A DNA stretch of 64,000 bases from a virus. The number at the start of each line of letters is the position of its first letter. Positions within the stretch are counted from its first letter, which is position 1. The notes under the pieces are model-generated. The model worked only from the letters and a program-made list of their open reading frames with translations. It was not told the origin of the DNA and did not search any database. This document shows, one piece after another, positions 38,918-63,903 of the stretch. Both the position numbers and the translations under genes were made by a program. The DNA lies in the IMG/VR virus record IMGVR_UViG_3300022699_000293, positions 1 to 64,000 of that record; one strand, 5' to 3'.

Positions 38918-40507
38918 ATGACTCATTCTTCACCAGCGCAGCGTACTGCAGCCTGGGCTAATCGGAAATACCCAGATGTAGAAAACTTGAATACTGTTTT
39001 AGTAGATAGTCCAAGTACTAGCCTACGAATGACAAAAAAAGATGTATTAGATTATTATACAACACCAGAGGTGCAACGTAACTTGTTGCCCCAATTACGT
39101 CAAAAAGATTTAATTGCCTTAGTTGCTAGAGATCCTAACAATCCAATAATCAGAAGGTATCGTAGAAGAAAGGAACCTGTCCGCATATCTGATAAAAAAG
39201 ACTTAGATTGGTATGCCAAGCGCAGATATGTTGAATTTCACCCAACGTTAAAATCCAAATCTAAAGAGTTGTGGGTAGACTTGGATGCGGGTAAGAATGT
39301 AGGTATCGACGAAATAAAACCTGCAGTTAAAGATGTACAAAAAGCTGTTTCTAAAATCCCCAACATTAAAAAAACGGACATAACATTTTCTGGTGGTCGA
39401 GGTTTTCATGTTCGAGGAGAGTTAAATAAAGAACAAAGAACAAGTTCCTTAGAAAAAGTTATCAAACGCGTTATGGCTCGTTTGGCACGACGAAATAAAC
39501 GTTACACTACACGCCCTCCCAAAACCAATGAAATTCGTCTTGACACTTCTACGTTTCACGAACGAGGTTCAATACGCGCTCCTTTTTCACTTAATCAAAA
39601 AACAGGATTAGTTTCAGTTCCTGTAAAAAATAATCATTTAAAATCTTTTGATCCTATTGCTCATGCTAACCCTTGGGCAGTGATTGCTGAATTACGACGT
39701 AAAAAGAAAACTTCGCGTGAATTTGCTCCAGGCATTCCCGAAAATAGAGCTATTAAATCTTTACCTAGCTTTAAACAACCTAAATCGTGGATTATGTCTG
39801 TTCAAGAGCATGACGCAAAAAAAGCAGGAAAACATTACGATTTACGTTTAGTGGATCCTTGGAGTGACTACGCTCACTCTTGGGCAATCCCTAAAAGTAA
39901 ACTACCTCGAGCAGGAGAAAAACCTGTTCTAGCAATCCAAACTCCTACACATACATCGAACTATGCATTAACCTTTGGAGCTAAAAAACCTGAGCATATT
40001 GCCAAGGGCTACGGAGCAGGCACAGTACAAATAAAACATAAGGAACCTGTACAATTAACTTCTTCTCCAGATTTTATTAAATTCAAAAGACAAAAAGGTC
40101 GTGGCCAAGAAGAAAATTTTGTGCTATTCCGAACTAAAGGAGATTCTTGGTTATTACGTAATGTGACAAAATCGGGAACAGTAAAGGAAGCTGTAATGAG
40201 TTCTTTATATTGGAATGGATTTGAAGAAACGCTACAAAAATTAGGTATGTCTAATGAAGTGCGTGCGGCTATAAAACAACGTGGTCAATCGGAAAATATG
40301 CAACAATCTTTAGAAACAGAAGATCAAGGATTACCTTCTGCGGCTTTAGCTAAACAACTACAGAAATTACCTGTACCTGAAATTGTACACAAAAATAAAG
40401 GACAAGATAGCGTTGAAAATAGACTAAATAGATCTGTATCTTGGGGACCTAAACAAGAAATTTCACATGAAGTTGCTACGGGACCTTCCCCGATAATGGG
40501 AATTTAA
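38918..40507 (+). CDS. LigD-like primase-polymerase (AEP) plus 3'-phosphoesterase, no ligase domain
   Basis: EFHP, VDLD, FSGGRGFHV, IRLD, RAPFSL; QEHDA...HYDLRL, SWAIPK, LAIQT.TH, GYGAG. Confidence 0.85.
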   Translation: MTHSSPAQRTAAWANRKYPDVENLNTVLVDSPSTSLRMTKKDVLDYYTTPEVQRNLLPQLRQKDLIALVARDPNNPIIRRYRRRKEPVRISDKKDLDWYAKRRYVEFHPTLKSKSKELWVDLDAGKNVGIDEIKPAVKDVQKAVSKIPNIKKTDITFSGGRGFHVRGELNKEQRTSSLEKVIKRVMARLARRNKRYTTRPPKTNEIRLDTSTFHERGSIRAPFSLNQKTGLVSVPVKNNHLKSFDPIAHANPWAVIAELRRKKKTSREFAPGIPENRAIKSLPSFKQPKSWIMSVQEHDAKKAGKHYDLRLVDPWSDYAHSWAIPKSKLPRAGEKPVLAIQTPTHTSNYALTFGAKKPEHIAKGYGAGTVQIKHKEPVQLTSSPDFIKFKRQKGRGQEENFVLFRTKGDSWLLRNVTKSGTVKEAVMSSLYWNGFEETLQKLGMSNEVRAAIKQRGQSENMQQSLETEDQGLPSAALAKQLQKLPVPEIVHKNKGQDSVENRLNRSVSWGPKQEISHEVATGPSPIMGI

Positions 40508-40508
40508 T

Positions 40509-42305
40509 ATGACTACACAAACTTTTGGGCGATACTTACTTAACCAACATATTCCTAAAGATTATCAATTGTCGGGAGAATCTGGGAAAAAAGAATTACG
40601 TACCAAAATGAACGCATTGGCAAAAAAAGATCCGGTGGCTTATGTGAAAACAATTACAGATCTTAAGCGTGAAGGTGATTTCTTAGCTACAATGTCGGGA
40701 CTTTCTGTGGGCTTGGATGATATTTCACCGGCACCGACACGCGATGAAGTATTGAAACCTTTGGTATCTGCTTTTAATCGCGCACAAACAGATAAACAAA
40801 GACGGCGTATTGCCGAACAAGCACAGGAAAAATTACTCAGTACTGTATCCAAACATCCAGGATCCATGACACAACAAGTAAAAAGTGGGGCTCGAGGAAA
40901 ACCTGTACAGTATATGAAAATTGTCGCATCTCCTGCTGCAGCTAGAGATTCTTACGGATATACAGAACCTTGGTTGATTACTCGGTCATATGCCGAAGGT
41001 TTACGCCCTTCTGATTATTGGGTTGCGGGTAACGAAGCTATCTTAGACACTATCAAAAGCACTGTTTCAGTGTCTGAACCAGGGGAATTGACTAAAGTCC
41101 TTATGAGTAATATGGCAGATACGCTTGTAATTGAAATTGATTGCGGCACACATAATGGTATTTCCTTAAATGTTAGTGACTCTAATATTTTAGACAGGTA
41201 CTTGGCTCGAGATACCGGACGCTTTAAGCGTAATACTTTAATTACATCACAAGTACAAACGGCTTTAAAAAAAGCAGGAAAACAAAAAATCCTGGTACGT
41301 TCTCCTATGACTTGTGAGTCTGATGATGGAGTTTGTCAGAAATGCCAAGGGTTGGATGAGAAAGGTAATCCTCAAGAATTGGGTGTGAACGTTGGTGTGC
41401 GTGCAGCTTCTGCGTTAGGGGAACCTTTAAGTCAATTTGCCTTGGATGCTAAGCACGGAGTACGTACGGCTAAAGGAGATCGTGCTAGATTGCAAGGAGT
41501 TTCTGGCTTTCGTCAAATAATAGAATCGCCACAACAATTTTTAAACAAAGCAACTCTTGCGGAACACGGCGGGAATGTAGATAAGATTGAAACTGCTCCT
41601 CAGGGAGGTCATTTCGTATACGTGAATGCTAAAAAACATTTTGTACCTCCTAATTTACAAGTAACAGCAAAAAAGGGGGATTCCATAGAACCAGGAGATT
41701 CTCTTAGTGAAGGCATTCCCAAACCTGATGAAATAGTTCGTTACAAAGGACTCGGTGCAGGACGGCAGTATCTTGTAAATACTTTGCGTGATTTGTATGC
41801 TAATCAAGGACGAGACTTAGATCAGAGACATTTTGAATTATTAGCAAAGAACGAATTGAACCATGTGCGCGTTTTAGAAGATCCAGGTAACAATTTTTTA
41901 AAAGGAGACGTGGTATCTTATAATGCTCTTCGATCTACATTAGCTAAACAATCAAAAGAAATACCTATTAACGAGTCGTTAGGGCAAGTATTAGGAAAAC
42001 CTTACTTTCATTTTTCTGTAGGTCAGCGTATTACTCCAGCAGTTCTTCACTATTTAAAGAAAGAAGGTTTGAAATCTGTACTCATTGCTTCAAAAGCACC
42101 TAATGTAGAATTTATTATGAAACCTGCAACACGCGCACCCTTGTTAAACCCTGATTGGATGGCTCGATTAGGTCACAGGTACTTAAAAACAACTCTAAAG
42201 GAAGCTGCTCATTTTGGGGATATTTCTAATTTACAAGGTACCCACCCTGTTCCTGCTTACGCTGCTGGCGTAAACTTTGGTCAGGGAAAACAAGGACGCT
42301 ATTAG
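40509..42305 (+). CDS. rpoC: RNA polymerase beta' C-terminal half
   Basis: TFGR, SGARG, SYAEGL.P, DT.....EPGELTK, DCGT, VRSP.TC...VCQKC.G, VGV.AA..LGEP.SQ, HFELL. Confidence 0.9.
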   Translation: MTTQTFGRYLLNQHIPKDYQLSGESGKKELRTKMNALAKKDPVAYVKTITDLKREGDFLATMSGLSVGLDDISPAPTRDEVLKPLVSAFNRAQTDKQRRRIAEQAQEKLLSTVSKHPGSMTQQVKSGARGKPVQYMKIVASPAAARDSYGYTEPWLITRSYAEGLRPSDYWVAGNEAILDTIKSTVSVSEPGELTKVLMSNMADTLVIEIDCGTHNGISLNVSDSNILDRYLARDTGRFKRNTLITSQVQTALKKAGKQKILVRSPMTCESDDGVCQKCQGLDEKGNPQELGVNVGVRAASALGEPLSQFALDAKHGVRTAKGDRARLQGVSGFRQIIESPQQFLNKATLAEHGGNVDKIETAPQGGHFVYVNAKKHFVPPNLQVTAKKGDSIEPGDSLSEGIPKPDEIVRYKGLGAGRQYLVNTLRDLYANQGRDLDQRHFELLAKNELNHVRVLEDPGNNFLKGDVVSYNALRSTLAKQSKEIPINESLGQVLGKPYFHFSVGQRITPAVLHYLKKEGLKSVLIASKAPNVEFIMKPATRAPLLNPDWMARLGHRYLKTTLKEAAHFGDISNLQGTHPVPAYAAGVNFGQGKQGRY

Positions 42306-42312
42306 GAATAAA

Positions 42313-42816
42313 ATGGATTACGATTTTTATAAGTTAGGATGGGATGCAGCACTTGTAGACTTAGGCTTATGTAAAGAAGCTGCGTGGCCTAAAAGTTTAG
42401 CACGTGTGGGGAAATTTTTAAAAAGTAAGGTTCCTTCTAAAGCAGGTGTAAAAAAATTTTTTATAGGCAGTCCTAGACGTTTTATGCATGAATTTCGCAG
42501 TAAAAAATTATTGCAACCTGGAAGTACTTTGCGTGAGGGTTACAGAGCACGCAGTCCTCTGGAAAAAGCGCTGCTTTACGGTTTTCCATTGTACGAGGGA
42601 GGCCGTATTTTAACAGGAGACCCTGGACAAAGAGCTGAAAATATAGGAGGATTGCTGGGAGGTATGACTCTTGGTTTGGGTGCGTGGGGGCCTTCAGGTA
42701 TGTTAGGCTCCATAGCTGCAGGTAGCTTGGGAGACTATTTAGGAAGAGGACTTGCCCGAACAGCTAAACATTCTTTGGGAGTAACCCCCGACGTAACGAA
42801 TATATACAAAAAATAA
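42313..42816 (+). CDS. basic glycine-zipper protein with N-terminal tag; putative head cargo/ejection protein
   Basis: FYKLGWDAALVDLGLCKEAA followed by GxxxG-rich hydrophobic helices. Confidence 0.55.
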   Translation: MDYDFYKLGWDAALVDLGLCKEAAWPKSLARVGKFLKSKVPSKAGVKKFFIGSPRRFMHEFRSKKLLQPGSTLREGYRARSPLEKALLYGFPLYEGGRILTGDPGQRAENIGGLLGGMTLGLGAWGPSGMLGSIAAGSLGDYLGRGLARTAKHSLGVTPDVTNIYKK

Positions 42817-42825
42817 AATTAAATC

Positions 42826-42854
42826 TTGGTAATTTTCACCGAATGCCATATACT
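42826..42854 (+). promoter_or_regulatory. sigma70-like promoter
   Basis: TTGGTA-17 nt-TATACT, then GGAGG RBS and ATG 42883. Confidence 0.45.
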
Positions 42855-42882
42855 TGGCGTGAACACTTTGGAGGTAAATAAA

Positions 42883-43326
42883 ATGGATACAGCAACAGCT
42901 AACGCATTAATCAAAGCCGCTTATGCCGAAGGCGTGAAACAAGCATTAACTGAGCGTGGATTAGACGAAAAAACAGCGTCTATTCGAAGTGAAGTGTTTA
43001 CAGAAGAAAAATTTGCCGGTATTGCAGATGTCGGACAAGCTATTCGAAGCGGTCTTGGTCGCGCTGGGCAAGCTGTAGGCGGGGCTGCTAGCCGTGCTGG
43101 GCAAGCTGTAGGCGGGGCTGCTAGCCGTGCTGGGCAAGCTGTAGGCGGGGCTGCTAGGTCTGCAAAAGAAACCGCAAGCATCCCTATTGAAAATTTGAAG
43201 CTTCTACGTGAAACCAATCCGGAAGCCTTTAATGCTCTTATGGGTGGTGGTATCATCGGTGGTGGTGCAGGTTTAGGTGCTGGAATTGGTGGGACGTTGG
43301 GTACTCAAGCTCTTTTAGAAGATTGA
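42883..43326 (+). CDS. Gly/Ala-rich protein with 11-aa repeats and glycine zipper; putative head cargo
   Basis: AYAEGVKQALTERGLDEKTA; RAGQAVGGAAS-type unit about 3x; C-terminal GGGIIGGGAGLGAGIGG. Confidence 0.6.
   Translation: MDTATANALIKAAYAEGVKQALTERGLDEKTASIRSEVFTEEKFAGIADVGQAIRSGLGRAGQAVGGAASRAGQAVGGAASRAGQAVGGAARSAKETASIPIENLKLLRETNPEAFNALMGGGIIGGGAGLGAGIGGTLGTQALLED
43063..43157 (+). repeat. 33-bp perfect tandem repeat, ~2.9 copies
   Basis: Unit GCTGGGCAAGCTGTAGGCGGGGCTGCTAGCCGT. Confidence 0.95.
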
Positions 43327-43358
43327 GTTTTTAAAAAAAGCAACCGGGAGAAAACACC

Positions 43359-44381
43359 ATGGGATTGTTCAAACGTGCACATGTAAGGGGCATCAATCAT
43401 GAATTGGTACGACAAGGAATGATTGGATGGCCTTCTGAAAAAATTGCTGAAGAAGCAACTGATGTCATAGCCGACGAACTTGCAGAAGAAGAAATACCTG
43501 AAGTTAGCGGTGACGAAGGTTTGTCTGCTGAAGAAGCAGCAGCTATCATTGATCAATTGGTCGAAGTAGCAGAAGCTATTGCAGAAAAAACCGGACAAGT
43601 ACATGATGATAACTTGTCTAAGATGGCTGCTTCAGTGAATTATGAAACAGCAGCATCAGCGCATGCTACGTCTTTGTTGCAAAAAGCAGCAGCCGAGGCA
43701 GGTACTGATGTTACAGGGGATGGAAGATTTCAGGAAACTATGATGGATGGGGGCATGGGGCATATTGATGCTCGAAAAGATCCTTCATCGGAAAAAGTTG
43801 GTCCTCAAGGTACTAGTACTTTAGATACTTCTCCTGGAGAGGTTGGAGCACAAACACCCCAACCCGAAACTATCGGTCCGGCAGAAGAAGTTAGTTCAGA
43901 AGTTTCTAAACTTTCGTCACGTATTGAAAAGTTAAATGACCTTCTGAACAAGCAGTCCAGTACCGACCCAGGGTCAGGAAATACAGGTACTCCTGCGCGA
44001 AAAGAACCTAAGGATAACCAAGAAATGTCGGGTGTAGCTCCGGCTCAAGGAAAAACTACACAACCTAAGGGTCCTCTAATGGGTTCGCAACAACCACAAC
44101 CACGCGCAGAAAGCCCTGCTACTCCTGGTGAAGTAGCTAAACTGTCTTCTTTGCTTCAAAATGCCCTTAATAAGTTGTCTGGTGAAGTGCCTCCTGAGTT
44201 GAAAGAAAACGCAGAAGATATGAAACAACAAGAGGCTAAGGAAGAAAAGGCAAAGCAAGAGGGTAAAAAACCTCCTAAAGAAGAAAAAGACGATAAAGCT
44301 GATTCTGAAAAAAGCGAAGAAGAGAAAAAAGCTCAGTTCGCGCACGCGTTACAAATTTTACAGAACTATGCAGGAAGCTGA
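43359..44381 (+). CDS. acidic, Pro/Gly-rich putative scaffold/internal head protein
   Basis: Low complexity; internal repeat EVSKLSS/EVAKLSS; K-x-A/S motifs. Confidence 0.55.
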   Translation: MGLFKRAHVRGINHELVRQGMIGWPSEKIAEEATDVIADELAEEEIPEVSGDEGLSAEEAAAIIDQLVEVAEAIAEKTGQVHDDNLSKMAASVNYETAASAHATSLLQKAAAEAGTDVTGDGRFQETMMDGGMGHIDARKDPSSEKVGPQGTSTLDTSPGEVGAQTPQPETIGPAEEVSSEVSKLSSRIEKLNDLLNKQSSTDPGSGNTGTPARKEPKDNQEMSGVAPAQGKTTQPKGPLMGSQQPQPRAESPATPGEVAKLSSLLQNALNKLSGEVPPELKENAEDMKQQEAKEEKAKQEGKKPPKEEKDDKADSEKSEEEKKAQFAHALQILQNYAGS

Positions 44382-44460
44382 AAATCTTCCTTTCCTATCT
44401 TCGAATTCAACGGTATAATTTAAATCAAGAATATAAACCCTTTGGAAGGGAGAGATACCT

Positions 44461-50028: not shown

Positions 50029-52110
50029 ATGCTTTCAAAAATATTACATTTAGATTCGCATTTCCCTACAGGCGAGTTAACAGTACAGCCTGTATTTTTG
50101 TGGGCTAATGGAAAAGCATGTCTTGAAAATATAAGCAAGTATGCAAGTGTGGGTCACGATTACTTCAAAACAATTGAACCTATTCCCGGACACTCCGTTG
50201 TTTATGTTCTTGCTGTTAGTGGTTGGGAAACTTACGGAGAAAATAAAAATGGGGACGGTTTTCCTGAATTCCCATATAAAGAAGATTCTTCTCCACCATG
50301 GATTGCTCCTGATGAAGTTCTTCCGTTACATTATAAATCTTTTGAAAAACACGGAAATAACTTTCGACATCATCAAAATAAAGATCCTAAAAAAGCTGTA
50401 GGGAAAGTTATAAAATCTTTTTGGAATCCTACAATGCACCGAGTTGAACTTCTAATTGATTTAGAAGATGAAAAAGCTCCAGATTTAGCGGAAAGAATTG
50501 CTTCCGGTGAATTCCCTCCTGTTAGTATGGGAACTCGAGTTAGGTACGATGTTTGTAACATTTGCGGTAATCGCGCACCTACTCGTGCTCAATATTGTGA
50601 CCATCTTAAATTTCAAATGAAGCAGACACTACCAGACGGTAGAACTATTTGTGCTTTAAACCCTAATCCTAAATTTTTTGATATTAGTTGGGTTTTTAAA
50701 CCAGCAGACCCGACAGCGTATATGCTAAAAAAAGTAGCTGATAACGAACCTTATGAGTTGTCAGGTGCAGCTGCAGGAGAGTACTTAGACAAGATGGCGG
50801 AACGAAAATTAGCCGCTAAAAAATTAGCTGTAATTGACAAACTTATTCAAGGTTATCCTCTAGACGCTAAATGCGAAGGATTTAATCCCTCCGATATACA
50901 TAACATTCAAGCTATAAGAGATCTTGTTCTATCCGTAGTAGACGACATTCCTGAATTCTCAGACGATACTTTGAAAGAATTGTCGATCCACCCTCTTAAC
51001 AAAATTTTTTCTACTTTGTTTTCAGGAGGAATTTCTCTTTCTACTCCGGAGTTAGTAAAAATAATCGTCTATAAAAATTATCCTAATACGGAAATAGGGG
51101 ATGATATTTTAGACAAGTGCGTTATTATGCAACAACCTTTAAGGGAATTTATTGAAGATTGTCCCCAAATTATGGATCAGTTTGAAAAAGATGGGTACTT
51201 TGACTTAGGTATCGATAAAGTAGATACCAAAATAGCTTCAATTGTTGATCCTTATTTTGAAAAACGTTCTGGTATTCCTCAATATTTAAAACGACAATTT
51301 GTACCTTCAAAATATCGAGATGTGCCTGAGCCTAAAACAACACCTCTTACCGTTAGTGATCCAGTTACAGGAACTCGATACCAAACTACACGAGGTGCTG
51401 CTCTAACGGCACATGACGAAATAGCTAAAAAGAATTTAATGAAAGTTTTGGGGGGTGCTGCTTTGTTGGGCGGTGCTTATAAGTTACTTGGAACAGGTTT
51501 AGAGCATATAGGGAAACGAAAATTAAAACCACTATTAGGGTTATCTTTAGCAGGTTTAGGTGTTAGTCAGTGGCCTGATATGGGTCCGCATTACAGGACA
51601 GACCAAGGCGTTCCTGTGCCGACATTGACTGAAATGGTACCTAAGCAGGCAGCTATAACATCTTCTTTAGCATTGCCTGCTTTAGGTACTTTAGCAGCTA
51701 TGACTGCTTTGGGCTTAGACTATAAATCTCGATTACGGCGAGGAGAACCTATAGGGCATCCTGCATTACCTTTATCTCGACGACTATTGGATAGGGTTGA
51801 ACGTTTTACTTATGAGCACCCTGTAGTTACTGCTATTGGTGGAACAGCTGCCTTGAAAGGTCTTGGAAAAATTCCTCTTGTGCAGAAAGGTATGGGTTAT
51901 GCCGGACGTGCAGGAGAATATGCAAAAAGAAAAGCTCAAGATGCTGCTTCAAATGTGCGCGATGCTTTTCGTACTATGGCTCGGGAACGTGTAAAAGTAT
52001 CTGAACTTCTCGAACCAGATTTACCAACACCTACAGGTACAGTAGAATTGCCCCCTATAGATTTGGATAAAATAGCTACAAAAATTGGTTATCTAATTTG
52101 GGAAGGCTAA
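50029..52110 (+). CDS. putative prohead maturation protease (HK97/assemblin-like) with C-terminal extension
   Basis: N.NGDGF, FRHH.N.D....VG (His), VSMG (Ser), CNIC..CDH Zn insert, FFDISWV..PAD; upstream of the scaffold/capsid genes. Confidence 0.65.
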   Translation: MLSKILHLDSHFPTGELTVQPVFLWANGKACLENISKYASVGHDYFKTIEPIPGHSVVYVLAVSGWETYGENKNGDGFPEFPYKEDSSPPWIAPDEVLPLHYKSFEKHGNNFRHHQNKDPKKAVGKVIKSFWNPTMHRVELLIDLEDEKAPDLAERIASGEFPPVSMGTRVRYDVCNICGNRAPTRAQYCDHLKFQMKQTLPDGRTICALNPNPKFFDISWVFKPADPTAYMLKKVADNEPYELSGAAAGEYLDKMAERKLAAKKLAVIDKLIQGYPLDAKCEGFNPSDIHNIQAIRDLVLSVVDDIPEFSDDTLKELSIHPLNKIFSTLFSGGISLSTPELVKIIVYKNYPNTEIGDDILDKCVIMQQPLREFIEDCPQIMDQFEKDGYFDLGIDKVDTKIASIVDPYFEKRSGIPQYLKRQFVPSKYRDVPEPKTTPLTVSDPVTGTRYQTTRGAALTAHDEIAKKNLMKVLGGAALLGGAYKLLGTGLEHIGKRKLKPLLGLSLAGLGVSQWPDMGPHYRTDQGVPVPTLTEMVPKQAAITSSLALPALGTLAAMTALGLDYKSRLRRGEPIGHPALPLSRRLLDRVERFTYEHPVVTAIGGTAALKGLGKIPLVQKGMGYAGRAGEYAKRKAQDAASNVRDAFRTMARERVKVSELLEPDLPTPTGTVELPPIDLDKIATKIGYLIWEG

Positions 52111-52174: not shown

Positions 52175-52936
52175 ATGGAACTGGAAGCAATCATCAATGA
52201 ACTGAAAAAAGATCCGGAGACTGAGAAAGTCGCCAATGACAACAGTTCAACAACCCCTGCTCAATCCCAGGACAAAAGTGCGGAAGAATTGAGTGATGCG
52301 TTAAAGGATGCCCTCAAAACGGGGGAACCAAATAAGCAAGCTTCTGCAGAAGAAGAAAATCCTGTGGAAGCTTTGATGAAAATGGCGAGTGAAATGTCTA
52401 GCATGGACAAAGAAGCAGAAGAAGCCACTGTACGAAATTTAGGTATTGCTTTTGCAGATAGTGCACACCGCCGATGGAACGAGTTAAATGAAAAAGTAGG
52501 TAACGTTTTAGATCCTCTGGCTGAAGCAGTGAAAATTGCAGCTATGCAGGGTTACGAGGATACTAATACCGCTTTAGGAAAACAAGCAACACTTCAGCAA
52601 GGTTACGAAGATACTGATCTTGCATTAACAAAACAAGCAGCACTCCAACAAGGTTATAGTGATGCTAACGCTACTTTAGATGGCTACCAAAAAACAGCGG
52701 CGGGACAGACTGACGTGTCTGACGAACAAGTATTAGAGCAACTCGTAAAGCATGCAGAAGCTGGTGACGCTGAAGCTCAGCAATACTTACAAAAAATTGC
52801 AGAAGAATATGAAGCTGGTAGTCAAGCTGCATTGCAAATGGCTCACAAGGTAGCATCTGAAGAATTTTTAAAGGGTGCGGCAGAAGTTCAGGTTTTGCTT
52901 AACGCTCTGCGAGAACAACAACAGCAACAACAATAA
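52175..52936 (+). CDS. putative scaffolding protein with three 17-aa repeats
   Basis: Acidic and helical; GYED/GYSD...KQA repeats at 51-bp period; more than 10 K-x-A motifs. Confidence 0.6.
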   Translation: MELEAIINELKKDPETEKVANDNSSTTPAQSQDKSAEELSDALKDALKTGEPNKQASAEEENPVEALMKMASEMSSMDKEAEEATVRNLGIAFADSAHRRWNELNEKVGNVLDPLAEAVKIAAMQGYEDTNTALGKQATLQQGYEDTDLALTKQAALQQGYSDANATLDGYQKTAAGQTDVSDEQVLEQLVKHAEAGDAEAQQYLQKIAEEYEAGSQAALQMAHKVASEEFLKGAAEVQVLLNALREQQQQQQ

Positions 52937-54282: not shown

Positions 54283-55194
54283 ATGGATTATAACGTTGAA
54301 ACACCTGAAGCAAGCGCACAGCTTATTAATTCTAGTTTCGTACGGAAGCTCGAAGAAGGTCGTGTGAAGGAAGCCGCAGACCAGAGTACAGCTTTTATTC
54401 GCGAAAAGCTACGTCAAGAAGCTGCCGTCCGAGAATTAATGGCTCCGGAAGGTATTTCTGAAGAAGAAATCGACCGGGACGAAGACACGGACCAACCAAA
54501 GAAAATTATCGACAAAGAACCGGACTCGTACGCTACATTCGTACAGTTCCAAGGTTCTGGTCCGCGCACATGGTTTAAAGGACCCCGTTACGCTATTTAT
54601 TTTGGTAAGGTAGAATCTCAGCGCTTTACCAAGAATAAATGGGAATTAATGTCCTATACCAGCGACATTAGGAAGATTCTGTCTGACAATTCTGTAAAGG
54701 ACATGGCAGACGAGGAAGATTCCAAGTGGAATAATCTCGTAACCGACATCATTAACGGGAACCCGCTAGAACAACGTACGGCAGGACCATTTCAAAGTAC
54801 CACGTTTAAGCGTGCTATGCAGAAAATGATCGGTCGTCGGCGTCCTATCGGTAAGATGCTAATGACGAAATATCGTTATTTCGATGCTTTAGATCTTCCC
54901 GCTTTGAGCGTTGGTGATGATATTGCTACGCGTCATTTTGACGAGGGTATCGAAGCTTCTGAAAAGTTATGGGGTCTTCCAGTAGTAACTACTATCAAGG
55001 GAGACATCTACGACGAAAGTAAAGCGTGGATCTTTTCACCGCAAAAGCCTAATAACTATTTAGGGAACTTTTACCTTCTGCAAGATGCTACATTGTTTAT
55101 CAAGCAAGAAGCAGATGTCATCATGTTCTGGAGTTACGAAGCTCCGGGTATTGGAATAGGTAATCGTTTATCGATGCAAGAAATTCAGTTCTAA
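54283..55194 (+). CDS. major capsid protein (putative, HK97 fold)
   Basis: 303 aa, strong AAGGAGG RBS, follows protease/scaffold/decoration; KDMADEED, LWGLPVVTTIK, YEAPGIGIGN. Confidence 0.7.
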   Translation: MDYNVETPEASAQLINSSFVRKLEEGRVKEAADQSTAFIREKLRQEAAVRELMAPEGISEEEIDRDEDTDQPKKIIDKEPDSYATFVQFQGSGPRTWFKGPRYAIYFGKVESQRFTKNKWELMSYTSDIRKILSDNSVKDMADEEDSKWNNLVTDIINGNPLEQRTAGPFQSTTFKRAMQKMIGRRRPIGKMLMTKYRYFDALDLPALSVGDDIATRHFDEGIEASEKLWGLPVVTTIKGDIYDESKAWIFSPQKPNNYLGNFYLLQDATLFIKQEADVIMFWSYEAPGIGIGNRLSMQEIQF

Positions 55195-55725: not shown

Positions 55726-55792
55726 GCATATAATTATTTCGTTAAATTCTTTTGTACTTTAATCTCCCTTATAGTTGCCGTATCCTTATAAT

Positions 55793-56068
55793 ATGGCAAC
55801 GAAAGTAGACCATAATTACCCAACGGTTGACGCTCTAACTGTTACAGATTCTGAAACATTAGAACCTGTACAGTACGCAATCATTAGAATTTATCATGCT
55901 GACAGCTATCCTACTACCTCAGATTCTTATACTTGGGTAGGAGGTACGATTACAAATGAAAGGGGGCGATGGGCAGATCCTATTTTTTTGGATGATGGTC
56001 TTGAGTGGGTAGTCGAAATTACTCGAGAATTAACATACGACACGCAAACAGTGAACATTACAACATGA
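55793..56068 (+). CDS. small beta-sandwich virion protein (paralog A)
   Basis: VDHNYP...IRIY...TNERGRW...WVV. Confidence 0.6.
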   Translation: MATKVDHNYPTVDALTVTDSETLEPVQYAIIRIYHADSYPTTSDSYTWVGGTITNERGRWADPIFLDDGLEWVVEITRELTYDTQTVNITT

Positions 56069-56334
56069 GTGTTACAGTAGACCATAATTACCCACATCGA
56101 AATGATCTAAAAATTGTAGATCATGCAGGTGCTCCTTTAGAAAATGTAGAAATTAGGATTTTTGCTTTAGAGAAATTTTTGGCTTGTGACACAAATGTAC
56201 CTGTCGCACAAACAACTACTAACCATAAAGGTGAATGGACGGACAGTATCGAATTACCAGACGGTCGCTCATGGGTTGTACATTTTCAAAAATTAGGTGT
56301 AGTTGGTCCTGCACATCGTGAAATTATTACTTGA
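56065..56334 (+). CDS. small beta-sandwich virion protein (paralog B)
   Basis: ATGA overlap; VDHNYP...IRIF...TNHKGEW...WVV. Confidence 0.6.
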   Translation: MSVTVDHNYPHRNDLKIVDHAGAPLENVEIRIFALEKFLACDTNVPVAQTTTNHKGEWTDSIELPDGRSWVVHFQKLGVVGPAHREIIT

Positions 56335-56343
56335 GGTGCTGTT

Positions 56344-56943
56344 ATGTCTTCTTCGAGTTCCACACCCCCTTCTACTTACAGGCTTGGTAACAATGGAAGT
56401 GCTTATAAATGGATTGAACGAGAATTGCAACGTCTTGATAAAGGTAAAACAGATAAATCCCATTGCACACCTACAACAAGCGCTATAAATGGAAAATTGA
56501 AAGATCTAGGACGAGAAATTCATGATCTAAAACAAGAACTAGACAAGGACATAACAGGAATACAGGATGTAGCTTCCGAAGCTCGTAAAAAAGCTATCAA
56601 TCTTGTTTGTCCTAATGAAGCAAGGGTGAATGCTATGGAAAAAACCGTAAGTCTTTGGAGCTCATGGTTAATTAGAGGATTGGCAACTATTATTATCTTG
56701 TTACTGACTGCTGGTGGAGGTTGGGTTTATTCTTATGTACGCTTAGAAGAAACCGCTAAAACTGCCAGTAAAGCTGTAGACTCTTTCAAGGGTACTGTTG
56801 AGCATGTGCGCATGGAACAGAAAAAACAGCAAGAAACTCTTGAACGCATAGAACGTACGAATGATATTGCTTCTAACAATTTAAAAGATGTTTTGAAGCA
56901 AGCTCTTGCAGAAGCTCTAGAAAAAGCAGATGAAGATTCTTAG
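56344..56943 (+). CDS. single-pass membrane coiled-coil protein (possible lysis-related)
   Basis: Hydrophobic stretch WLIRGLATIIILLLTAGGGWVYSY flanked by coiled coils. Confidence 0.55.
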   Translation: MSSSSSTPPSTYRLGNNGSAYKWIERELQRLDKGKTDKSHCTPTTSAINGKLKDLGREIHDLKQELDKDITGIQDVASEARKKAINLVCPNEARVNAMEKTVSLWSSWLIRGLATIIILLLTAGGGWVYSYVRLEETAKTASKAVDSFKGTVEHVRMEQKKQQETLERIERTNDIASNNLKDVLKQALAEALEKADEDS

Positions 56944-56986
56944 AAATAGGCTATAATGTAATTAGAAATAATTAGAGGAGGCTCGA

Positions 56987-57790
56987 ATGCCCAAAGTCAT
57001 ACCCACACGTACGCTAGATTCTAATACACTTGTAGGCCACGCTCTTATAGGAGTGCGCCAACGTGTTGACGGTACTAAACAAATTACGGGGGTATCTCCA
57101 ACTATAACCGGACCCCCTGCAATACGTCCTTGGGACGGAGTTATGTTTAATAAAGATTTGTACACTTATGCAGACATACAATCCGAATGTTTAGTCGGGG
57201 ATTCTGCAAACATTAATGCTCAAGTTATTCTAAAGGCTCTAGACGAAACTGTAGACGCACAAAAAATGACAGTAACTGTCGCGGAATCCACGGCCGCTTC
57301 AGTTACAGTAGTCGGGCGTGTGATTAGAATCAATTTTGTTCCTGGAGTCACTACTTATGCTAACATTAACGCTATGCTTGGAGCGCATCCTGATTTACCT
57401 CTTAGTTTAGCTTTTATTTTGCCAGGGACAGGAGCTCCTAATGTGTTTGCGCAAGATAAGCTATATTTCAAACAACCAGCATTAACGCAAGCAGTCCAGG
57501 ATGACGGGGGGATTTTCAGGTTCGCGGAAACAGAACGTTGCTATACCTTACAAGCAATTAGCTTAGTGTGCGGAGCAGGGTCTACTGTAGATGCGTATAT
57601 CCAAGATGCGGGTGGTGGGCATCCCAGAAAAATTTTAGCGGGTGTCAGCGGAGTAGCCGACGACCACCAAATAGACTTACCTCTTTTATCTAATGAAGAA
57701 GTACTAATCGAAGAAACTGTATCAGGAGGTCCCGCACCAGGAACCGATAAATATATAACACTTTACCTCGTAAATACTAATTCAAGTTAA
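56987..57790 (+). CDS. putative virion structural protein
   Basis: beta-rich composition; TATAAT at 56952 and GAGGAGG RBS. Confidence 0.6.
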   Translation: MPKVIPTRTLDSNTLVGHALIGVRQRVDGTKQITGVSPTITGPPAIRPWDGVMFNKDLYTYADIQSECLVGDSANINAQVILKALDETVDAQKMTVTVAESTAASVTVVGRVIRINFVPGVTTYANINAMLGAHPDLPLSLAFILPGTGAPNVFAQDKLYFKQPALTQAVQDDGGIFRFAETERCYTLQAISLVCGAGSTVDAYIQDAGGGHPRKILAGVSGVADDHQIDLPLLSNEEVLIEETVSGGPAPGTDKYITLYLVNTNSS

Positions 57791-57792
57791 AA

Positions 57793-58296
57793 ATGGCTAC
57801 TTCATTAAATCCGAATGCTGCTCCTCTAACAATGGACGTGATCCGTATGTTCTTACGGGATCAACCAGAAAAAAATCCTTTGTTGGAAGATGTTGAATGG
57901 GAACCAGAAGAGATCAATAACGCAATAGATTTAGCTGTATCTAAATACAATGCTATGACCCCTATTACCCGCACTTATCCGGAACAAATGAATGCTTGGT
58001 TGTTGTTGAGTGGTGTGTGCTGTATTTTATTTCGCTCAGAGGGAGCGCGACAATTAAGAAACCAAGTTCAGGCGCAAGATGGCGGTATCGCTCCTGTTGG
58101 TCTGGATGAAAAAGAATCTCTGTATATGCGTTGGGCTGACTGGTTCTGTCAAGAATTCGAACATTTGGCTCGAGGTATAAAAACTCAAGCTAATATGGAA
58201 GGTGGATGGGGAGGTTTGACAAGTGGGGGTGGTGGTGCATATGGTAAAGTGTCTTCAGGGTATCGTTGGACAGGGCGATGGTATCGTAGGAGTTAA
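57793..58296 (+). CDS. putative head-tail adaptor/neck protein
   Basis: IRMFLRD...EEI..AI..A helical pattern; position after the capsid genes. Confidence 0.5.
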   Translation: MATSLNPNAAPLTMDVIRMFLRDQPEKNPLLEDVEWEPEEINNAIDLAVSKYNAMTPITRTYPEQMNAWLLLSGVCCILFRSEGARQLRNQVQAQDGGIAPVGLDEKESLYMRWADWFCQEFEHLARGIKTQANMEGGWGGLTSGGGGAYGKVSSGYRWTGRWYRRS

Positions 58297-58307
58297 GGAG
58301 AATTTTT

Positions 58308-58619
58308 ATGAATCCGAAATTACGTGAAAAAATAGCACAATTTTTAGAACAACAAGGTGTATTTATTAAAGAGGCGATATCCTCTAGAGCTGTTGGGTCT
58401 GCGGGAGAAAGTCTAGGCGGACTTTTAGCAAAACATAGAGGAAAGATAGGATTAATTGGTGGTTTAGCAGGGGGTGGAGGTACCGCAGCAGGTGTAGCAG
58501 CATTAGGTAAAGAAGAATTGCAGAATCAACAAGAAGCCGCAGAACTGAACCAATTGTTGGAAGCCTATCCTGAATTGCTATACACAACACCTACAACACC
58601 TTATACGCCACCTCAGTAA
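58308..58619 (+). CDS. small glycine-zipper protein with K-x-A motifs
   Basis: EKIAQ, IKEAI; GLIGGLAGGGGTAAGVAALG. Confidence 0.55.
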   Translation: MNPKLREKIAQFLEQQGVFIKEAISSRAVGSAGESLGGLLAKHRGKIGLIGGLAGGGGTAAGVAALGKEELQNQQEAAELNQLLEAYPELLYTTPTTPYTPPQ

Positions 58620-58632
58620 GGATTAATCTTTT

Positions 58633-59496
58633 ATGGGAACTCCTTATTCCCAGACTTACGGGAAGCAACGTACTCCCGCATTGCCTAAAAACTTTAGTGT
58701 AGAAATTACACGCACTGTAGCGGCTTATCCTAAACAAGTATTTGTTCAGTGGACATTAAGAAAACCTCCTTCAGGTACAGGATTCACGTTTGATATTTAC
58801 CGCTCAGGATCCTCAGAAGGTCCTTGGGAAGAGTTAGCTACAGATTTAGTAGATACTTTTTTTTATGTTGATGCTAAGTTTGGAAAAAAACACGATGCAA
58901 ATCTTTTTTCTATCCAGCGTGTTATCTACTATCGCATAGTCTGTCATTATACAGACGTAACTGTAGAAGATATTAGACAACTAGAGCCTGGTTTAGACCG
59001 GAGGAGAAAAGGTATACGCCGTAAATTAATTCGAGACGCGTCTAAAGCTCTTAAATTAGTGACGGGAACCGAAGTAGCTATTTTAAAAAAACGTCGTTGG
59101 GGCGAACGTTGTACCCATTGTGTTTCTAAGGGAACTTCTCAAAATGTTCGTGCCCATTGTGCTTATTGTTGGGGTACAGGATTTCTCCATGGTTATTGGG
59201 ATCCTGTATACGGTTACGCGCAACGTCGTAGAGTTCCTGTACAGACACAAATAGCTCCAGAAGGAAACGTAGAAACGCACAGAATAGAGATCCTAATGCT
59301 GAATGTGCCTAAAGTAGAACCTGGAGATTTGTTGATTTTTCTCAGAGACGACACCAGATATTTGGTAGAAATGTCCAACCCCACACAGTTACACTCTGTA
59401 GACGTACACCAAGAAGTACAAGTTTCTGAATTATCTAGATCTTCGAGAGAATATGGGCCTCCCGTTGATCCTTGGCATGACCCTGTATGGTTTTGA
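58633..59496 (+). CDS. putative neck/head-closure protein
   Basis: FN3-like start (VQW...FDIYRS....GPW) and CTHC...HCAYCWGTGF..GY Zn motif. Confidence 0.5.
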   Translation: MGTPYSQTYGKQRTPALPKNFSVEITRTVAAYPKQVFVQWTLRKPPSGTGFTFDIYRSGSSEGPWEELATDLVDTFFYVDAKFGKKHDANLFSIQRVIYYRIVCHYTDVTVEDIRQLEPGLDRRRKGIRRKLIRDASKALKLVTGTEVAILKKRRWGERCTHCVSKGTSQNVRAHCAYCWGTGFLHGYWDPVYGYAQRRRVPVQTQIAPEGNVETHRIEILMLNVPKVEPGDLLIFLRDDTRYLVEMSNPTQLHSVDVHQEVQVSELSRSSREYGPPVDPWHDPVWF

Positions 59497-59498
59497 AC

Positions 59499-60230
59499 AT
59501 GGGTGGTATAGTTATAACTCAGCCAGAAAATTCTCCTCGTTTACGAGGAGAGCATCAAGACATTGTACCGGGTACTCCCCTGGCTGTTATTGGTGTGTGG
59601 TTAGCAGCTCTGCGTTATAGGTTTAACGACAATCGTGGAGAACCTCTTCCGTGGGTTTGGGATCCTGATTTACGTCCTGAGGATGATGAAAATGCTCAAC
59701 CTAGAAATGAAGAAAATGGAGAACCTCGAAAATTACTGATTGAAGCAGCTTTTCATACAGAAAAAGAAGTTAGAAATTACCGGCCAGCTATTTATGTAGA
59801 TCGAGGTACTATTACGCCTATGAAGCACCACGTAGATAACTTCGTAGGCAAGTACATTCCTACAAATTATAAAGCTTTTCATGCTATGGCGGACATGCCC
59901 ATTTCGTTTTTGGTGGATTCCGAATCAGCTGGAGAATGTAGCTTAATTGCAGATACTGCTTGGTTTTTTGTTTTAGCCACGCGAGATATTTTCAGAAAAG
60001 ACTTTGGTTTTCATGAAATTTCCAATCCCGTAATGGGGCCTACACAACCCCAACCAGCACAAGATAAAACTGTATGGCAAACTTCCATTGACTTTAATGT
60101 ACAATTTGATTTGCGTTGGACTACAAAACCCGTTGCTCCATTCTTGCAAGACATCAGTTTAAAAATTAAAAAATCGTCGGATGCACAGTTACTTTACCAC
60201 GAGATAGCACTACGCGAATCTCAAGAATGA
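59499..60230 (+). CDS. putative tail completion/terminator protein
   Basis: RPAIYVDRG motif; immediately upstream of the sheath. Confidence 0.45.
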   Translation: MGGIVITQPENSPRLRGEHQDIVPGTPLAVIGVWLAALRYRFNDNRGEPLPWVWDPDLRPEDDENAQPRNEENGEPRKLLIEAAFHTEKEVRNYRPAIYVDRGTITPMKHHVDNFVGKYIPTNYKAFHAMADMPISFLVDSESAGECSLIADTAWFFVLATRDIFRKDFGFHEISNPVMGPTQPQPAQDKTVWQTSIDFNVQFDLRWTTKPVAPFLQDISLKIKKSSDAQLLYHEIALRESQE

Positions 60231-60280
60231 CCGTATAATTGTGCGCGTAGACAAGAAGTTTCAGACGTGGAGGATATCCC

Positions 60281-63184
60281 ATGGCTATGCAACGACCTAA
60301 CGTACTTGTTTTCCAAGAATACGAATCTATTACTGTAGCTCCGGACATCCCTGATTTGGATGTCCTCGTTGTGGGTTACGCGTATCAAATTTTAGATTAC
60401 TTAGATGATAAATCTGATTGTCAAGCAGAATCAGACTATGGAACAGAAAAAGGGGATATCCCTGTAGCCGGTGGTGACAACTATACCTCACCTTCTCAAG
60501 TTGTTTTATCCGACCCTCCCAATGTAAAGGCTGGAGGGGTATTAGTAGAGGATAGTGTTTCTATTTATTTTGATAGCGTAGAAGCTGTTATTGCAGAGCA
60601 TGATGGTGCGGCCAACTCTTACGGACGATATCTCACAGGAGATAATCTTTTTTGGGCTAACAGTACAGATGGTTCGTCTCCCCTTCCAGGCGCAACAGGA
60701 CAACATCTAGGTCAAGCGGGTATCGCACCTGGTGACTTATTGTTTGTACAACAAAACGCCGGTGGTTCCGCAGATATTCAGAAAACAGTGAGAGAGTTAT
60801 GTTACACATTTTACGATGGTAGTGTCTCTGCTCTTCAATTTGTGACTAACGGTGTTTCTCCTGGAGACACTATGACCGTTTGGAATGACGGGGCTGGAAC
60901 GTCTAGAGACGGGGAATACACAGTAAAACGTGTGTTAAGTGAAACTGTTTTAGAAGTTGAAGAAACTATCCCAGGTGCGGGGAATCTAGCAGCGGCACCA
61001 AACTGTTATATCCGTATTCAAGCTCCTTCAGGCACAATTCGAGTAGAGAACACAACTCCTGCAGACGGAGCTCTGTACGATTGGTGTAACGCGCGTACAA
61101 ATTCAGATTTTGGGTCTGATTATGTAGGTCCTCCTCCGGGAGCATCGTCAGAAAAATGGCGTTTTGAAAGAGAGTTAACGGATGTAGAGTTAGGTGATTC
61201 AGATTATTCAATTAGTGATAATACCATCACTCTTAATGGAAGTATCACAATCGATGTGAGTCCTTCATTGTTAGGTTGTGCCGTTACGTACTCAAAAATT
61301 TATGTCGAGTATCAAGCGTTAAGAACAGACTTGCAAGACGTTACAACGTTATCATCGACATCTGAAATGGCCTCTACATTGGGTAAGTTAGATGCTCGTA
61401 ACCCACTGTATGTCGGGGCTCATGTAGCTATGGCCAATACAACTACGCCTATTAAAATTTACGGTCTAGGAAATTTTGCTAGTGAGTTATTGGCTTATCA
61501 GGACTTTATTGACCGTATTAGTTCAGAACGAAACGTGTACGCTATTGTTCCACTCACGTATAGTTCTTCCGTATACGGTGCTTTGAAAGCCATGACGGAA
61601 AACTTAGCAGACCCTAATTACGTTTTAGATAACGGTGTACGTCAAAAATTCCGGATGATTTTGGGTGCGATTGAGTTAGAAACCAAAAAAGTTGTTGATG
61701 ACGTTACTGGTGGCGCATCTACCCTTCAAAAAACAGGGACTAAACCTATTCCTGCAACCAATGATGACTATCTGACAGCTAAACTATCAGGTACTATCTT
61801 GCCTGCTCTAGGGGACGCGGGTGCTAAGCTGGTACCTGGAGATATTTTTGAAGTTAAGTTGTGGGACGGTGCCGCAAACCATACGTATCAATTTACAGTC
61901 GCACATTACAACGGATTGAATGTAGGTGTAGAAAACTTAGAAATCGATTTACGTGCATCGGAACCTGTAGGACAACAAGCATTACCTGTATGGGGTGGTG
62001 CTCCAGGAACATGGAATGATTGGTCTGCTCCGTATGATTTGGACAATACGGGAATTCCTGGAGGTAGCGAACAGCATATCGATATTTTGGATGGTTCGAC
62101 AGGGCTGACAAAAATAGGCGGGCCAATTGCCCCGGGAGCTGCGGCTGGTGAAATTATTGTTGAAGCAGACGAGTTAGATGACTACTACTTGATCTTAAAA
62201 TCTCCAGGTGCGACTTTCATTTCTGACGGTGTTACTCCGGGAGATTTGCTACAAATGGCCGTTAACTGTGAATCTGATCCTGGAGATTGGGACGATGAAG
62301 CAGTGTTGCAAGAATGGACTATTAATACAGTACTCAGTGAAGAACGTGTAGAAATTGTAAATGAAGGTTCGAATACTTCTACCGTGGCTAACGAATTACC
62401 CCATAATTTCAAACGTTCTCTAGTGAGCGGTGTATTGGAAGAGGTGACTAACGGAGATATTTACTTCCGTATCATGCGAGATATGGATAAGACAGAACAA
62501 GTCGACAATATGGTATCGGTCGCATCTAGTTTCTCGAGTCAAAGATTAGTTCTCGCATATCCGGATTCTGTGGATGTTTCAAACCTAGTTGATGGAAGCA
62601 AAGACCGTTACGGTGCAAATACTGCTGCAGAAGCAGATCCTCAACCAGGTTACTATTTATCTTGTGCTATCGGGGGACAAACTGCTGGACAACCTTCACA
62701 GCAAGGTTTTACTAATTTAGGAATTAACGGAATTTCGAAAATCTACAATTCTCGAAATTATTTTACAGAAAAGCAACTTACTGATTTGTCCAATGGTGGT
62801 GTGTACGTGTTTGTGCAAGATACGCCAGCAGCATTGCCGTACACTATTCACGAAGTGACTACTGATACGACAGCTATAGAGACTGGCGAATACATGAACA
62901 TCAAGAATTTTGATTTCATTTCTTGGACATTTTTAGATACGTTACTGCCATTCTTAGGTATTTGGAACGTTACTCCAGAAACTATCGAGTATATCCGTCA
63001 AGCCTTACGTACCGTTCAAGAAAACTTAAAAGCTCGATACGTAACTAAAATTGGTCCACCTTTAATAGATGCTGTAATCGATACAGTTGAAGAATCAGAG
63101 TTAAGTAGTGATCGTATAGAAGCATATGTCAGCGTGGATTTACCTGCAGTATTGAATACAATAGGTCTACATTTAGTAGCGTAA
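60281..63184 (+). CDS. contractile tail sheath protein with large insertions
   Basis: N-terminal RPNVLVFQE; YAIVPLT; C-terminal PGYYL...G, QQGFTN, FTEKQL..L..GG, HEVTTD, P..LN.I.LHL. Confidence 0.8.
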   Translation: MAMQRPNVLVFQEYESITVAPDIPDLDVLVVGYAYQILDYLDDKSDCQAESDYGTEKGDIPVAGGDNYTSPSQVVLSDPPNVKAGGVLVEDSVSIYFDSVEAVIAEHDGAANSYGRYLTGDNLFWANSTDGSSPLPGATGQHLGQAGIAPGDLLFVQQNAGGSADIQKTVRELCYTFYDGSVSALQFVTNGVSPGDTMTVWNDGAGTSRDGEYTVKRVLSETVLEVEETIPGAGNLAAAPNCYIRIQAPSGTIRVENTTPADGALYDWCNARTNSDFGSDYVGPPPGASSEKWRFERELTDVELGDSDYSISDNTITLNGSITIDVSPSLLGCAVTYSKIYVEYQALRTDLQDVTTLSSTSEMASTLGKLDARNPLYVGAHVAMANTTTPIKIYGLGNFASELLAYQDFIDRISSERNVYAIVPLTYSSSVYGALKAMTENLADPNYVLDNGVRQKFRMILGAIELETKKVVDDVTGGASTLQKTGTKPIPATNDDYLTAKLSGTILPALGDAGAKLVPGDIFEVKLWDGAANHTYQFTVAHYNGLNVGVENLEIDLRASEPVGQQALPVWGGAPGTWNDWSAPYDLDNTGIPGGSEQHIDILDGSTGLTKIGGPIAPGAAAGEIIVEADELDDYYLILKSPGATFISDGVTPGDLLQMAVNCESDPGDWDDEAVLQEWTINTVLSEERVEIVNEGSNTSTVANELPHNFKRSLVSGVLEEVTNGDIYFRIMRDMDKTEQVDNMVSVASSFSSQRLVLAYPDSVDVSNLVDGSKDRYGANTAAEADPQPGYYLSCAIGGQTAGQPSQQGFTNLGINGISKIYNSRNYFTEKQLTDLSNGGVYVFVQDTPAALPYTIHEVTTDTTAIETGEYMNIKNFDFISWTFLDTLLPFLGIWNVTPETIEYIRQALRTVQENLKARYVTKIGPPLIDAVIDTVEESELSSDRIEAYVSVDLPAVLNTIGLHLVA

Positions 63185-63903
63185 TGGCAATGTTGGATAC
63201 CAAAGATTTGATTAAAATAGCACAGCTTTTAGGAACAACTAGGGCTTTGTTAGATGCCGGTTATTCTGAAAAAAATGTAAAGTTAGCTTTCATGCAAACT
63301 GACATTTTTTCTGAATACGTAGCTGAGACTTTTACAAAAGAAGCTTCTGGAATAAGTTCAGAAGATTTGATGGTTAAAGAAGCTTTATGGGGTGCAGTAG
63401 CCAACATAGGATCTAAAATTTTACCCTGGTTAACCCGCACTGGGAGTAAACTTGTAGGTAGTGCAAAAACTATAGGTAGCGCTACCGGAAAAGCACAAAG
63501 ACGTTTGATGCAAGGCGGTAAAATACCTCGATTAGCTGGAAAAGTAGTTGGGGGAGCCGGGCACATTGCAGGAAAAACTACTAAAGGGTTGGGTAAAAAA
63601 ACATTTCAAGCTACCCAAGCTTTACGCCAAGCTGGTCGAGGTATGCAAACAGCTCCTTTTAAAACTTTAGGAAAAGGTATGCTTAATTTCGGAAAAGGTG
63701 CTGTTATTGGTGGAGGGAAAGGTATTGGAGGCACTCTAGGCAAAGGTACGCTTTACGGGGGATTGGCCTATACAGGAGCTTCTATGTTGGGGGGTAGTAG
63801 TGGGGGTAGACAAATCCCACAAAATATGAGAAACTTACCACAGATAAGTCCAACGACTGCGCAACAATATGGAAGTGCAGGTCGTAGCTTTTACGGAGGA
63901 TAA
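63184..63903 (+). CDS. basic Gly-rich protein with N-terminal K-x-A-rich segment; putative head cargo
   Basis: IKIAQLLGTTRALLDAG, KLAF, KEAS, KEAL, then Lys/Gly-rich amphipathic segments. Confidence 0.55.
   Translation: MAMLDTKDLIKIAQLLGTTRALLDAGYSEKNVKLAFMQTDIFSEYVAETFTKEASGISSEDLMVKEALWGAVANIGSKILPWLTRTGSKLVGSAKTIGSATGKAQRRLMQGGKIPRLAGKVVGGAGHIAGKTTKGLGKKTFQATQALRQAGRGMQTAPFKTLGKGMLNFGKGAVIGGGKGIGGTLGKGTLYGGLAYTGASMLGGSSGGRQIPQNMRNLPQISPTTAQQYGSAGRSFYGG

Follow-up and report, generated by a model that had tools for sequence, protein, structure and literature searches.

The DNA analysed here, referred to as the window, is the first 64 kb (64,000 nucleotides) of the 87,130-bp virus record IMGVR_UViG_3300022699_000293, which derives from an uncultured large phage whose complete relatives measure approximately 180 kb. 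Among these relatives a 91-kb record is rated 51% complete and a 179-kb record 100% complete, and the 87,130-bp record may therefore likewise be a partial genome. On its plus strand, approximately 32-73 kb form a structural block, in which a LigD-type primase-polymerase gene lies between two RNA polymerase genes and is followed by three small genes (42313, 42883 and 43359; proteins are named here by the start coordinate of their gene), several head genes, a protease gene, a scaffold-like gene and the capsid gene. Five proteins, namely LigD, 42313, 42883, 43359 and 63184, carry a short segment, here termed a tag, beside the motif Lys-x-Ala (K-x-A). These tags, and their possible role as leaders of head cargo, are the subject of this report.

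Relatives L001-L009 were retrieved by way of the protease and L015-L024 with a degenerate DNA pattern of the 42883-type tag, and the comparative evidence is drawn from loci L001-L024. The order RNA polymerase, LigD, beta'C, 42313, 42883, 43359, 44461 is common to all fetched relatives, and the gene order of two cultured phages, Salmonella phage Arash and Vibrio phage D69, agrees with the structural block of the window. Mass spectrometry of Arash virions places both the beta and the beta' subunit of RNA polymerase among the most abundant proteins, within a list of 116 virion proteins that may include contaminants (PMC10585845); Arash is a distant relative, and the genes for these subunits lie in its corresponding block. 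The features of the window are collected in Table 1.

Table 1. Tags, candidate leaders and head genes in the window, with the number of conserved K-x-A sites per protein (residue positions in brackets)
Feature	Coordinates	Strand	Conserved K-x-A sites	Remarks
RNA polymerase beta-beta'N gene	34556-38917	+		1,453 residues
LigD-type primase-polymerase and 3'-phosphoesterase gene	38918-40507	+		Pfam PF21686, PF13298
K-E-A of LigD	40184-40192	+		residues 423-425; start of C-terminal tail, putative protease site
Tag segment, LigD tail (candidate class B/D leader helix)	40202-40258	+		residues 429-447 of 529; by profile homologous to 42313 N-terminus
RNA polymerase beta' C-terminal piece (beta'C)	40509-42305	+	1	identified by PHROG
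Tag segment, 42313 protein	42322-42378	+
Candidate class B leader, 167-residue Gly-zipper protein (42313-42816)	42322-42381	+	1 (21)	ends G-L-x-K-E-A, K-E-A at 42373-42381
Tag segment, 42883 protein	42916-42972	+
Candidate class A leader, 147-residue protein (42883-43326)	42913-42978	+		K-A-A at -6 to -4 from first Gly, helix, Gly turn, K-T-A
Tag segment, 43359 protein	43374-43430	+
Candidate class C leader, 340-residue acidic protein (43359-44381)	43371-43448	+	2 (5, 109)	K-R-A, helix, G-x8-G, K-I-A
44461 protein			5
47816 protein			3
48640 protein			1
49429 protein			2
49653 protein			3
Putative prohead (head maturation) protease	50029-52110	+	4	long C-terminal extension; K-x-A at residues 235, 260, 265, 681
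Scaffold-like protein	52175-52936	+	8	triplicated unit at 52526-52699
Major capsid protein	54283-55194	+	2 (29, 176)	K-E-A residues 29-31 (54367-54375)
Tag segment, 63184 protein	63217-63273	+
Candidate class A leader, 239-residue Gly/Lys-rich protein (63184-63903)	63214-63384	+		K-I-A, helix, K-L-A, two K-E-A at 63337, 63376

An earlier note, made from the sequence of the window, had reported five similar segments next to K-x-A, and this description was borne out: the five align without gaps over 19 columns, both glycines of a G-x8-G motif are fixed, and K-x-A lies no more than 12 residues from each of them. The pattern opens with an aromatic residue; Gly follows after two further residues, Leu, Met or Phe after another four, and a second Gly after three more. 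With the exception of the LigD copy, each segment begins between residues 4 and 12 of its protein. A strict regular expression gave 5 matches in the genome against 0.06 expected, a test that is circular because the expression was derived from the five segments themselves. We distinguish class A (42883 and 63184), class B/D (42313 as B, the LigD tail as D) and class C (43359); inside each family both glycines are invariant or nearly so.

Class A is the most widespread. A hidden Markov model (HMM) of 42883 orthologues, built without the window sequences, recovered both 42883 (E 1.5e-11) and 63184 (E 0.0017), with nothing else better than E 4; judged by this profile, the two are paralogues with a homologous N-terminal module. 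Orthologues of 63184 in L011 and L012 retain T-K-E-A. A profile search of 1.84 billion representatives yielded 54 protein clusters with the module, which nearly always occupies residues 1-45 of a carrier 47-268 residues long; no enzyme was among the carriers in these clusters. Their N-terminal 40 residues are conserved and their payloads highly variable, with C-termini that are Gly-zipper-like or Lys/Arg-rich and differ between clusters. K-x-A stands at -6 in 52 class A proteins, a position fixed by the selecting pattern; a second copy, near +13, +21 or +26, is present in most of them. AlphaFold2 (AF2), given a 34-sequence alignment of the 42883 protein, predicted a helix at residues 3-24, a turn at 25-28 around the second Gly and a helix at 29-61, the predicted local distance difference test (pLDDT) score being 91-98 over residues 1-40. 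Foldseek searches with this model against PDB and BFVD returned no match at E 0.001 or better, and Pfam (E up to 0.1) gave no Gly-zipper or other match for 42313, 42883 or 63184, whose Gly-zipper character consists of compositional GxxxG runs and one Atlas lead at 0.76 only.

Several further sequences touch on this class or on the tags in general. Residues ~75-110 of the 42883 protein (42883-43326, plus strand) hold three tandem copies of R-A-G-Q-A-V-G-G-A-A-S. In the 91-kb relative (L001:3282-3458) the 42883 orthologue stops after 58 residues and lacks the glycine-rich part, which may reflect a frameshift or a real truncation. A tag-like open reading frame (ORF) of 69 residues on the minus strand of the 179-kb relative (L010:1279-1488; E 0.001) has no homologues and is unconfirmed as a gene. 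Another, at 85485-85862 (minus strand) of the present genome (E 0.034), matches relatives in a Pro-rich stretch only and is likewise unconfirmed as a gene.

The second link joins 42313 to LigD. The class B helix begins at the initiator Met and closes with G-[L/M]-x-K-x-A, a motif (G-[LM]-x-K-x-A) present in 11/11 tag-bearing 42313 orthologues. When the tag families were compared by hhalign in a set of 105 pairs that included 11 control N-terminal families, the 42313 N-terminus and the LigD-tail segment ranked first (P 3.7e-10), and at the level of these profiles the two are homologous. The LigD copy of several relatives has the sequence K-E-A-x-M-T-P-F..G, a near match to the M-T-P-F..G start of 42313 orthologues. 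Pfam confirmed the polymerase and phosphoesterase domains of LigD; in the tail behind them G434, L439, K441, L442 and G443 are nearly invariant, and the K-x-A site is conserved among relatives as KEA, KTA, KGA or KVA, 3-8 residues before the helix. AF2 places a tail helix at residues 419-441 with pLDDT below 50 and no docking on the enzyme. The tail (residues 418-529) matched only itself among 5.8 billion proteins, its C-terminal module has no second copy elsewhere in the genome, and an HMM of classes B and D found no match in the Arash and D69 loci.

The LigD tail is also modular, as seen in L015:2228-3760 and L025 (G002:C1:40800-43400). In L015 a module starting M-K-K-T-A-N-Q-I-A-D occupies the place of the B/D helix, and in L004 this module opens a small ORF of its own, located between LigD and beta'C. 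In Arash (L013, gp221) and D69 (L014, gene 269) a small structural protein directly upstream of the protease has, by eye, an N-terminus of the form G-x7-G-[L/M]-x-K-x-A. The form resembles class B shortened by one residue, is not significant by HMM and serves as a lead only.

Class C comprises the 43359 family, in which the N-terminal 40 residues are again the best-conserved part. Searches of the ESM Atlas with 43359 and 42313 gave scores below 0.9, and related-locus searches with alignment A1, P0021 and P0047 gave no matches.

The motif that accompanies all of these tags is a feature of the head module as a whole. Over 16 orthologue groups and 5,990 alignment columns, a conserved Lys at position i with a conserved Ala at i+2 occurred 32 times where 3.5 were expected. 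No other residue pair shows so large an excess, GxP coming second (16 against 5.7), and this enrichment is the strongest result obtained. Raw counts also exceed the expectation from composition in the scaffold (14 against 2.9), the 47816 protein (10 against 2.9) and the protease (10 against 4.2), and K-x-A is absent from most genes at 55.7-63.2 kb. Gly is preferred at -3 and Leu or Met at -2, giving a conserved form [L/M]-x-K-x-A, and the middle residue is Glu at some sites only. Arash and D69 show this bias too, and a matching capsid-protein site, Q-G-L-[V/T]-K-E-A. The 54283 capsid protein shares 38% identity (E 2e-69) with gp226, annotated in Arash as the major capsid protein, and its own K-E-A at residues 29-31 is found in 7/7 orthologues. 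The 50029 protein was labelled a protease through PHROG 18299, "head maturation protease" (E 2.7e-11), and through tblastn matches, at E 4e-6 to 4e-8, with proteins of Erwinia and Gordonia phages that are annotated as maturation proteases; phmmer against PDB, like searches of Pfam and NCBIfam, gave no match, and the protein is a candidate member of the gp21-type (MEROPS S77) prohead proteases. Because the sites are many in the scaffold, surround the protease domain and include one near the capsid N-terminus, as in T4 and SPN3US (PMC5694885), we read [G]-[L/M]-x-K-x-A as the likely recognition motif of the head-maturation protease.

The tags themselves are bracketed by this motif. It flanks the tags of every family, with 2-4 copies within approximately 35 residues around the helix and few elsewhere in the same proteins, and in 3/4 tag families another follows within 2-17 residues after the helix. 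In classes A and C one K-x-A lies at -6 to -4 from the first Gly and the next at about +13 to +26 (A) or +17 to +19 (C). Given this placement, every tag copy would stand at a free N-terminus, either natively or after one cut, and a second cut could remove the tags of classes A, B and C.

A K-E-A and the sequence AYAAGV in RNA polymerase were considered as tags and rejected, as they lie within conserved polymerase regions; the K-E-A of the beta'C piece is not conserved. In two relatives (L021:2431-5478, L023:1069-7071) the homologue of 32004 has 1,015 residues against 579 in the window and that of RNA polymerase beta-beta'N 2,000 against 1,453, and these excesses may be large insertions, possibly inteins or fusions. 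Outside the head block, a 334-residue protein (10805-11809, plus strand), near a 534-residue ORF at 14187 taken for the large terminase, has 10 K-x-A against 2.2 expected, a bias like that of the head proteins, and may be a further protease substrate or head protein. At 55793-56334 (plus strand) lie two neighbouring paralogous genes of approximately 90 residues each, whose products begin V-D-H-N-Y-P and have a common G-x-W-x-D segment.

The reading that we favour, with a probability of roughly 45%, is that the helices are leaders of the kind found in T4, bounded by prohead-protease sites, following a different cutting rule and falling into three classes. It starts from the motifs and their conservation, the two homology links, the enrichment of K-x-A and the helix-turn-helix predicted for class A, all of which are established. 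It adds to these that K-x-A would be cut, that the carriers would lie inside the head and that the helix would act as the loader. The tags would be short amphipathic helices, situated at the very N-terminus or directly after K-x-A, and as leader peptides they would deliver the proteins that bear them to the prohead's scaffolding core, where the head protease would then clip them off, as happens with the T4 capsid targeting sequence. The carriers would be small Gly-zipper or basic proteins resembling ejection proteins, one acidic protein and the LigD polymerase-phosphoesterase. The support for their packaging is by analogy, from the abundance in Arash virions of the RNA polymerase subunits encoded in the corresponding block (PMC10585845). 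Of the system of tag, K-x-A cut site and payload proposed in the earlier note, the layout is real and conserved and the K-x-A resembles a head-protease motif, whereas the single tag gives way to three classes. Its payloads, described as enzymes and membrane-active proteins, hold in so far as the 42313-type helix recurs in LigD after a K-x-A, but LigD is the only enzyme among them and its helix is internal to the C-terminal tail.

Several results weigh against this reading, and the first concern the likeness of the tags to one another. Within this one genome the likeness of the five segments is not significant: in an unbiased comparison of all 16-mers of the 27,004-residue proteome with one another (BLOSUM62) the tag pairs scored 8-26, and 75 unrelated pairs scored at least 38. 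HMMs built with one family left out never retrieved the omitted family, and family-specific HMMs retrieved their own family only. These results are what would be expected if there were no common tag at all and the pattern of Gly, hydrophobic residue and Gly were chance or generic helix capping, with only the paralogue pair 42883/63184 and a local duplication or fusion joining 42313 and the LigD tail being real. The hhalign values for A-D (P 0.0014) and A-C (P 0.0032) are on a par with the best control pair (P 0.0019), A-B ranks 19/105 and C-D 27/105, and B-C aligns out of register. Repeats in the unrelated proteins P0051 and P0060 fit the latter half of the class A motif as well, the combined tag profile found no match in the Arash and D69 records, and comparison of tag profiles with full-length head-protein alignments gave nothing significant. 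Against an absence of any common tag, all pairwise profile alignments but one share a single register, 3/6 tag pairs take ranks 1, 2 and 4 of 105 (the families having been picked for likeness), the two glycines are the invariant positions of each family, and every copy lies at an N-terminus or just behind K-x-A. We regard this explanation as possible but unlikely. The comparisons nevertheless indicate three sequence classes and no single universal tag, with cross-class likeness at background level.

The earlier claim of one shared tag on unrelated proteins accordingly survives in part. Motif models run over the proteome and the relatives were not significant in the genome itself, but the relatives support two links, 42883 with 63184 and 42313 with the LigD tail, and likeness across classes is background. 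The carriers are only partly unrelated, given that 42883 and 63184 are paralogues and that 42313, 42883 and 63184 all have glycine-rich C-terminal parts. A looser triple version of the tag, reported in the 52175 scaffold, proved to be a K-x-A-bounded unit (Q-G-Y-x-D...A-L) in three tandem copies, of which 6/6 relatives compared have at most one; judged from these orthologues the triplication is window-specific and recent. Neither the repeat nor a conserved scaffold segment is significantly tag-like (P 0.09), and the idea that the tag mimics a scaffold segment was dropped on that value.

The helices could also be conserved modules of the mature proteins, serving in oligomerisation, membrane or DNA association or the solubility of the Gly-zipper proteins, in which case K-x-A would remain uncut and the LigD copy would be the relic of a fusion with a neighbouring small gene. 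Residues 1-40 of class A are both the best conserved and the most confidently folded, which is unusual for a throw-away propeptide, and the upstream K-x-A of this class falls within the confidently predicted helix 1, a placement that also counts against cleavage. The LigD copy retains Met, as a fused ORF would, another tail module exists as a separate small ORF in L004, and 42313, 42883 and 43359 are neighbours, as tandem paralogues would be. On the other side stand the clustering of K-x-A around the helix, its use in the scaffold, the protease and the capsid N-terminus, and payloads behind the helix that vary strongly, as in the T4 internal proteins, and we consider a role in the mature proteins unlikely.

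Further objections bear on the protease and on the reach of the favoured leader reading. The label of the 50029 protease depends on one PHROG family and on annotated relatives, and those relatives of this protease type that have been studied cleave behind a Glu rather than close to Lys-x-Ala. No tag is found on the RNA polymerase subunits or on most K-x-A head proteins, and the tag is therefore not a general address. The LigD helix lies 80 residues from the C-terminus and is followed by a more conserved C-terminal module, and in L015 both genes are kept, yet the helix is absent from LigD as well as from the 42313 orthologue. The boldest extension of the leader reading is that the class B/D helix would be a portable prohead-loading module, active wherever a K-x-A cut exposes it and grafted onto the C-terminal tail of LigD, such that a DNA-end-processing enzyme would be packed with the virion RNA polymerase and freed from its tail by a head protease of new, Lys-x-Ala specificity. 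We consider this extension improbable.

If the leaders and the K-x-A rule hold, a widespread uncultured lineage would use the "load, then clip" strategy of T4 with a different protease code, and the cargo so loaded would comprise membrane-active proteins and a DNA-repair-type enzyme, packed alongside the virion RNA polymerase. This would provide a sequence-based rule for predicting head cargo, a second independent pair of targeting and cleavage signals for loading proteins into capsids, and a testable instance of altered specificity in the prohead protease family. The module in the LigD tail, if real, would be a C-terminal self-releasing cargo signal of a kind not known from T4 or phiKZ-like phages.

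In the P22 scaffold, with its C-terminal helix-turn-helix, and in the cargo-loading peptides of encapsulins, a short N- or C-terminal peptide docks cargo in an HK97-fold shell and is not removed by a protease. The predicted helix-turn-helix of class A resembles these in form; no likeness of the window tags to them in sequence is apparent, no search against those sequences having been made.

Closer parallels are offered by the phiKZ-like phage SPN3US. Its paralogues gp53 and gp54 have identical N-terminal 15 residues (PMC5694885), and its known cuts, that of the protease itself excepted, all remove N-terminal propeptides (PMC10052503). Several features of its head and ejection proteins, gp47 among them, would on the favoured reading have counterparts in the window: an N-terminal leader kept in common by diverged paralogues, propeptides with more than one protease motif, an ejection protein that is processed and has a transmembrane segment, a virion RNA polymerase encoded among the head genes, and a protease, gp245, that trims its own C-terminus (PMC5694885, PMC10052503). 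The two differ in that SPN3US cuts at (A/S/G)-x-E whereas the window motif is K-x-A, and in that the LigD case would be C-terminal. Sequence similarity to the SPN3US head and ejection proteins was not detected.

The nearest precedent is T4, in which the internal proteins IPI-III and Alt bear a capsid targeting sequence that is removed by the prohead protease gp21 (PMC3012670, PMC5694885). There, as with class A (42883/63184, 54 clusters) and class B/D (42313/LigD), a short leader is common to otherwise dissimilar proteins and ends at a motif, here the putative site K-x-A, that recurs in scaffold, capsid protein and protease alike; what follows the leader varies, one payload is an enzyme (Alt in T4, LigD here), and the genes lie in or beside the head module. 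In contrast, T4 cleavage follows Glu in (L/I)-x-E and the window motif is [L/M]-x-K-x-A. The candidate leaders of the window are longer (approximately 20-40 residues), helical, bracketed by sites on both sides and of three classes; their payloads are mostly Gly-zipper proteins of membrane type, and the LigD leader lies in a C-terminal tail. The delivery code, described as new in the earlier note, is in principle that of the T4 capsid targeting sequence, and loading followed by trimming is already known (PMC3012670, PMC5694885); new here are the proposed K-x-A rule, the Gly-zipper cargo and the position of a putative leader inside the C-terminal tail of an enzyme.

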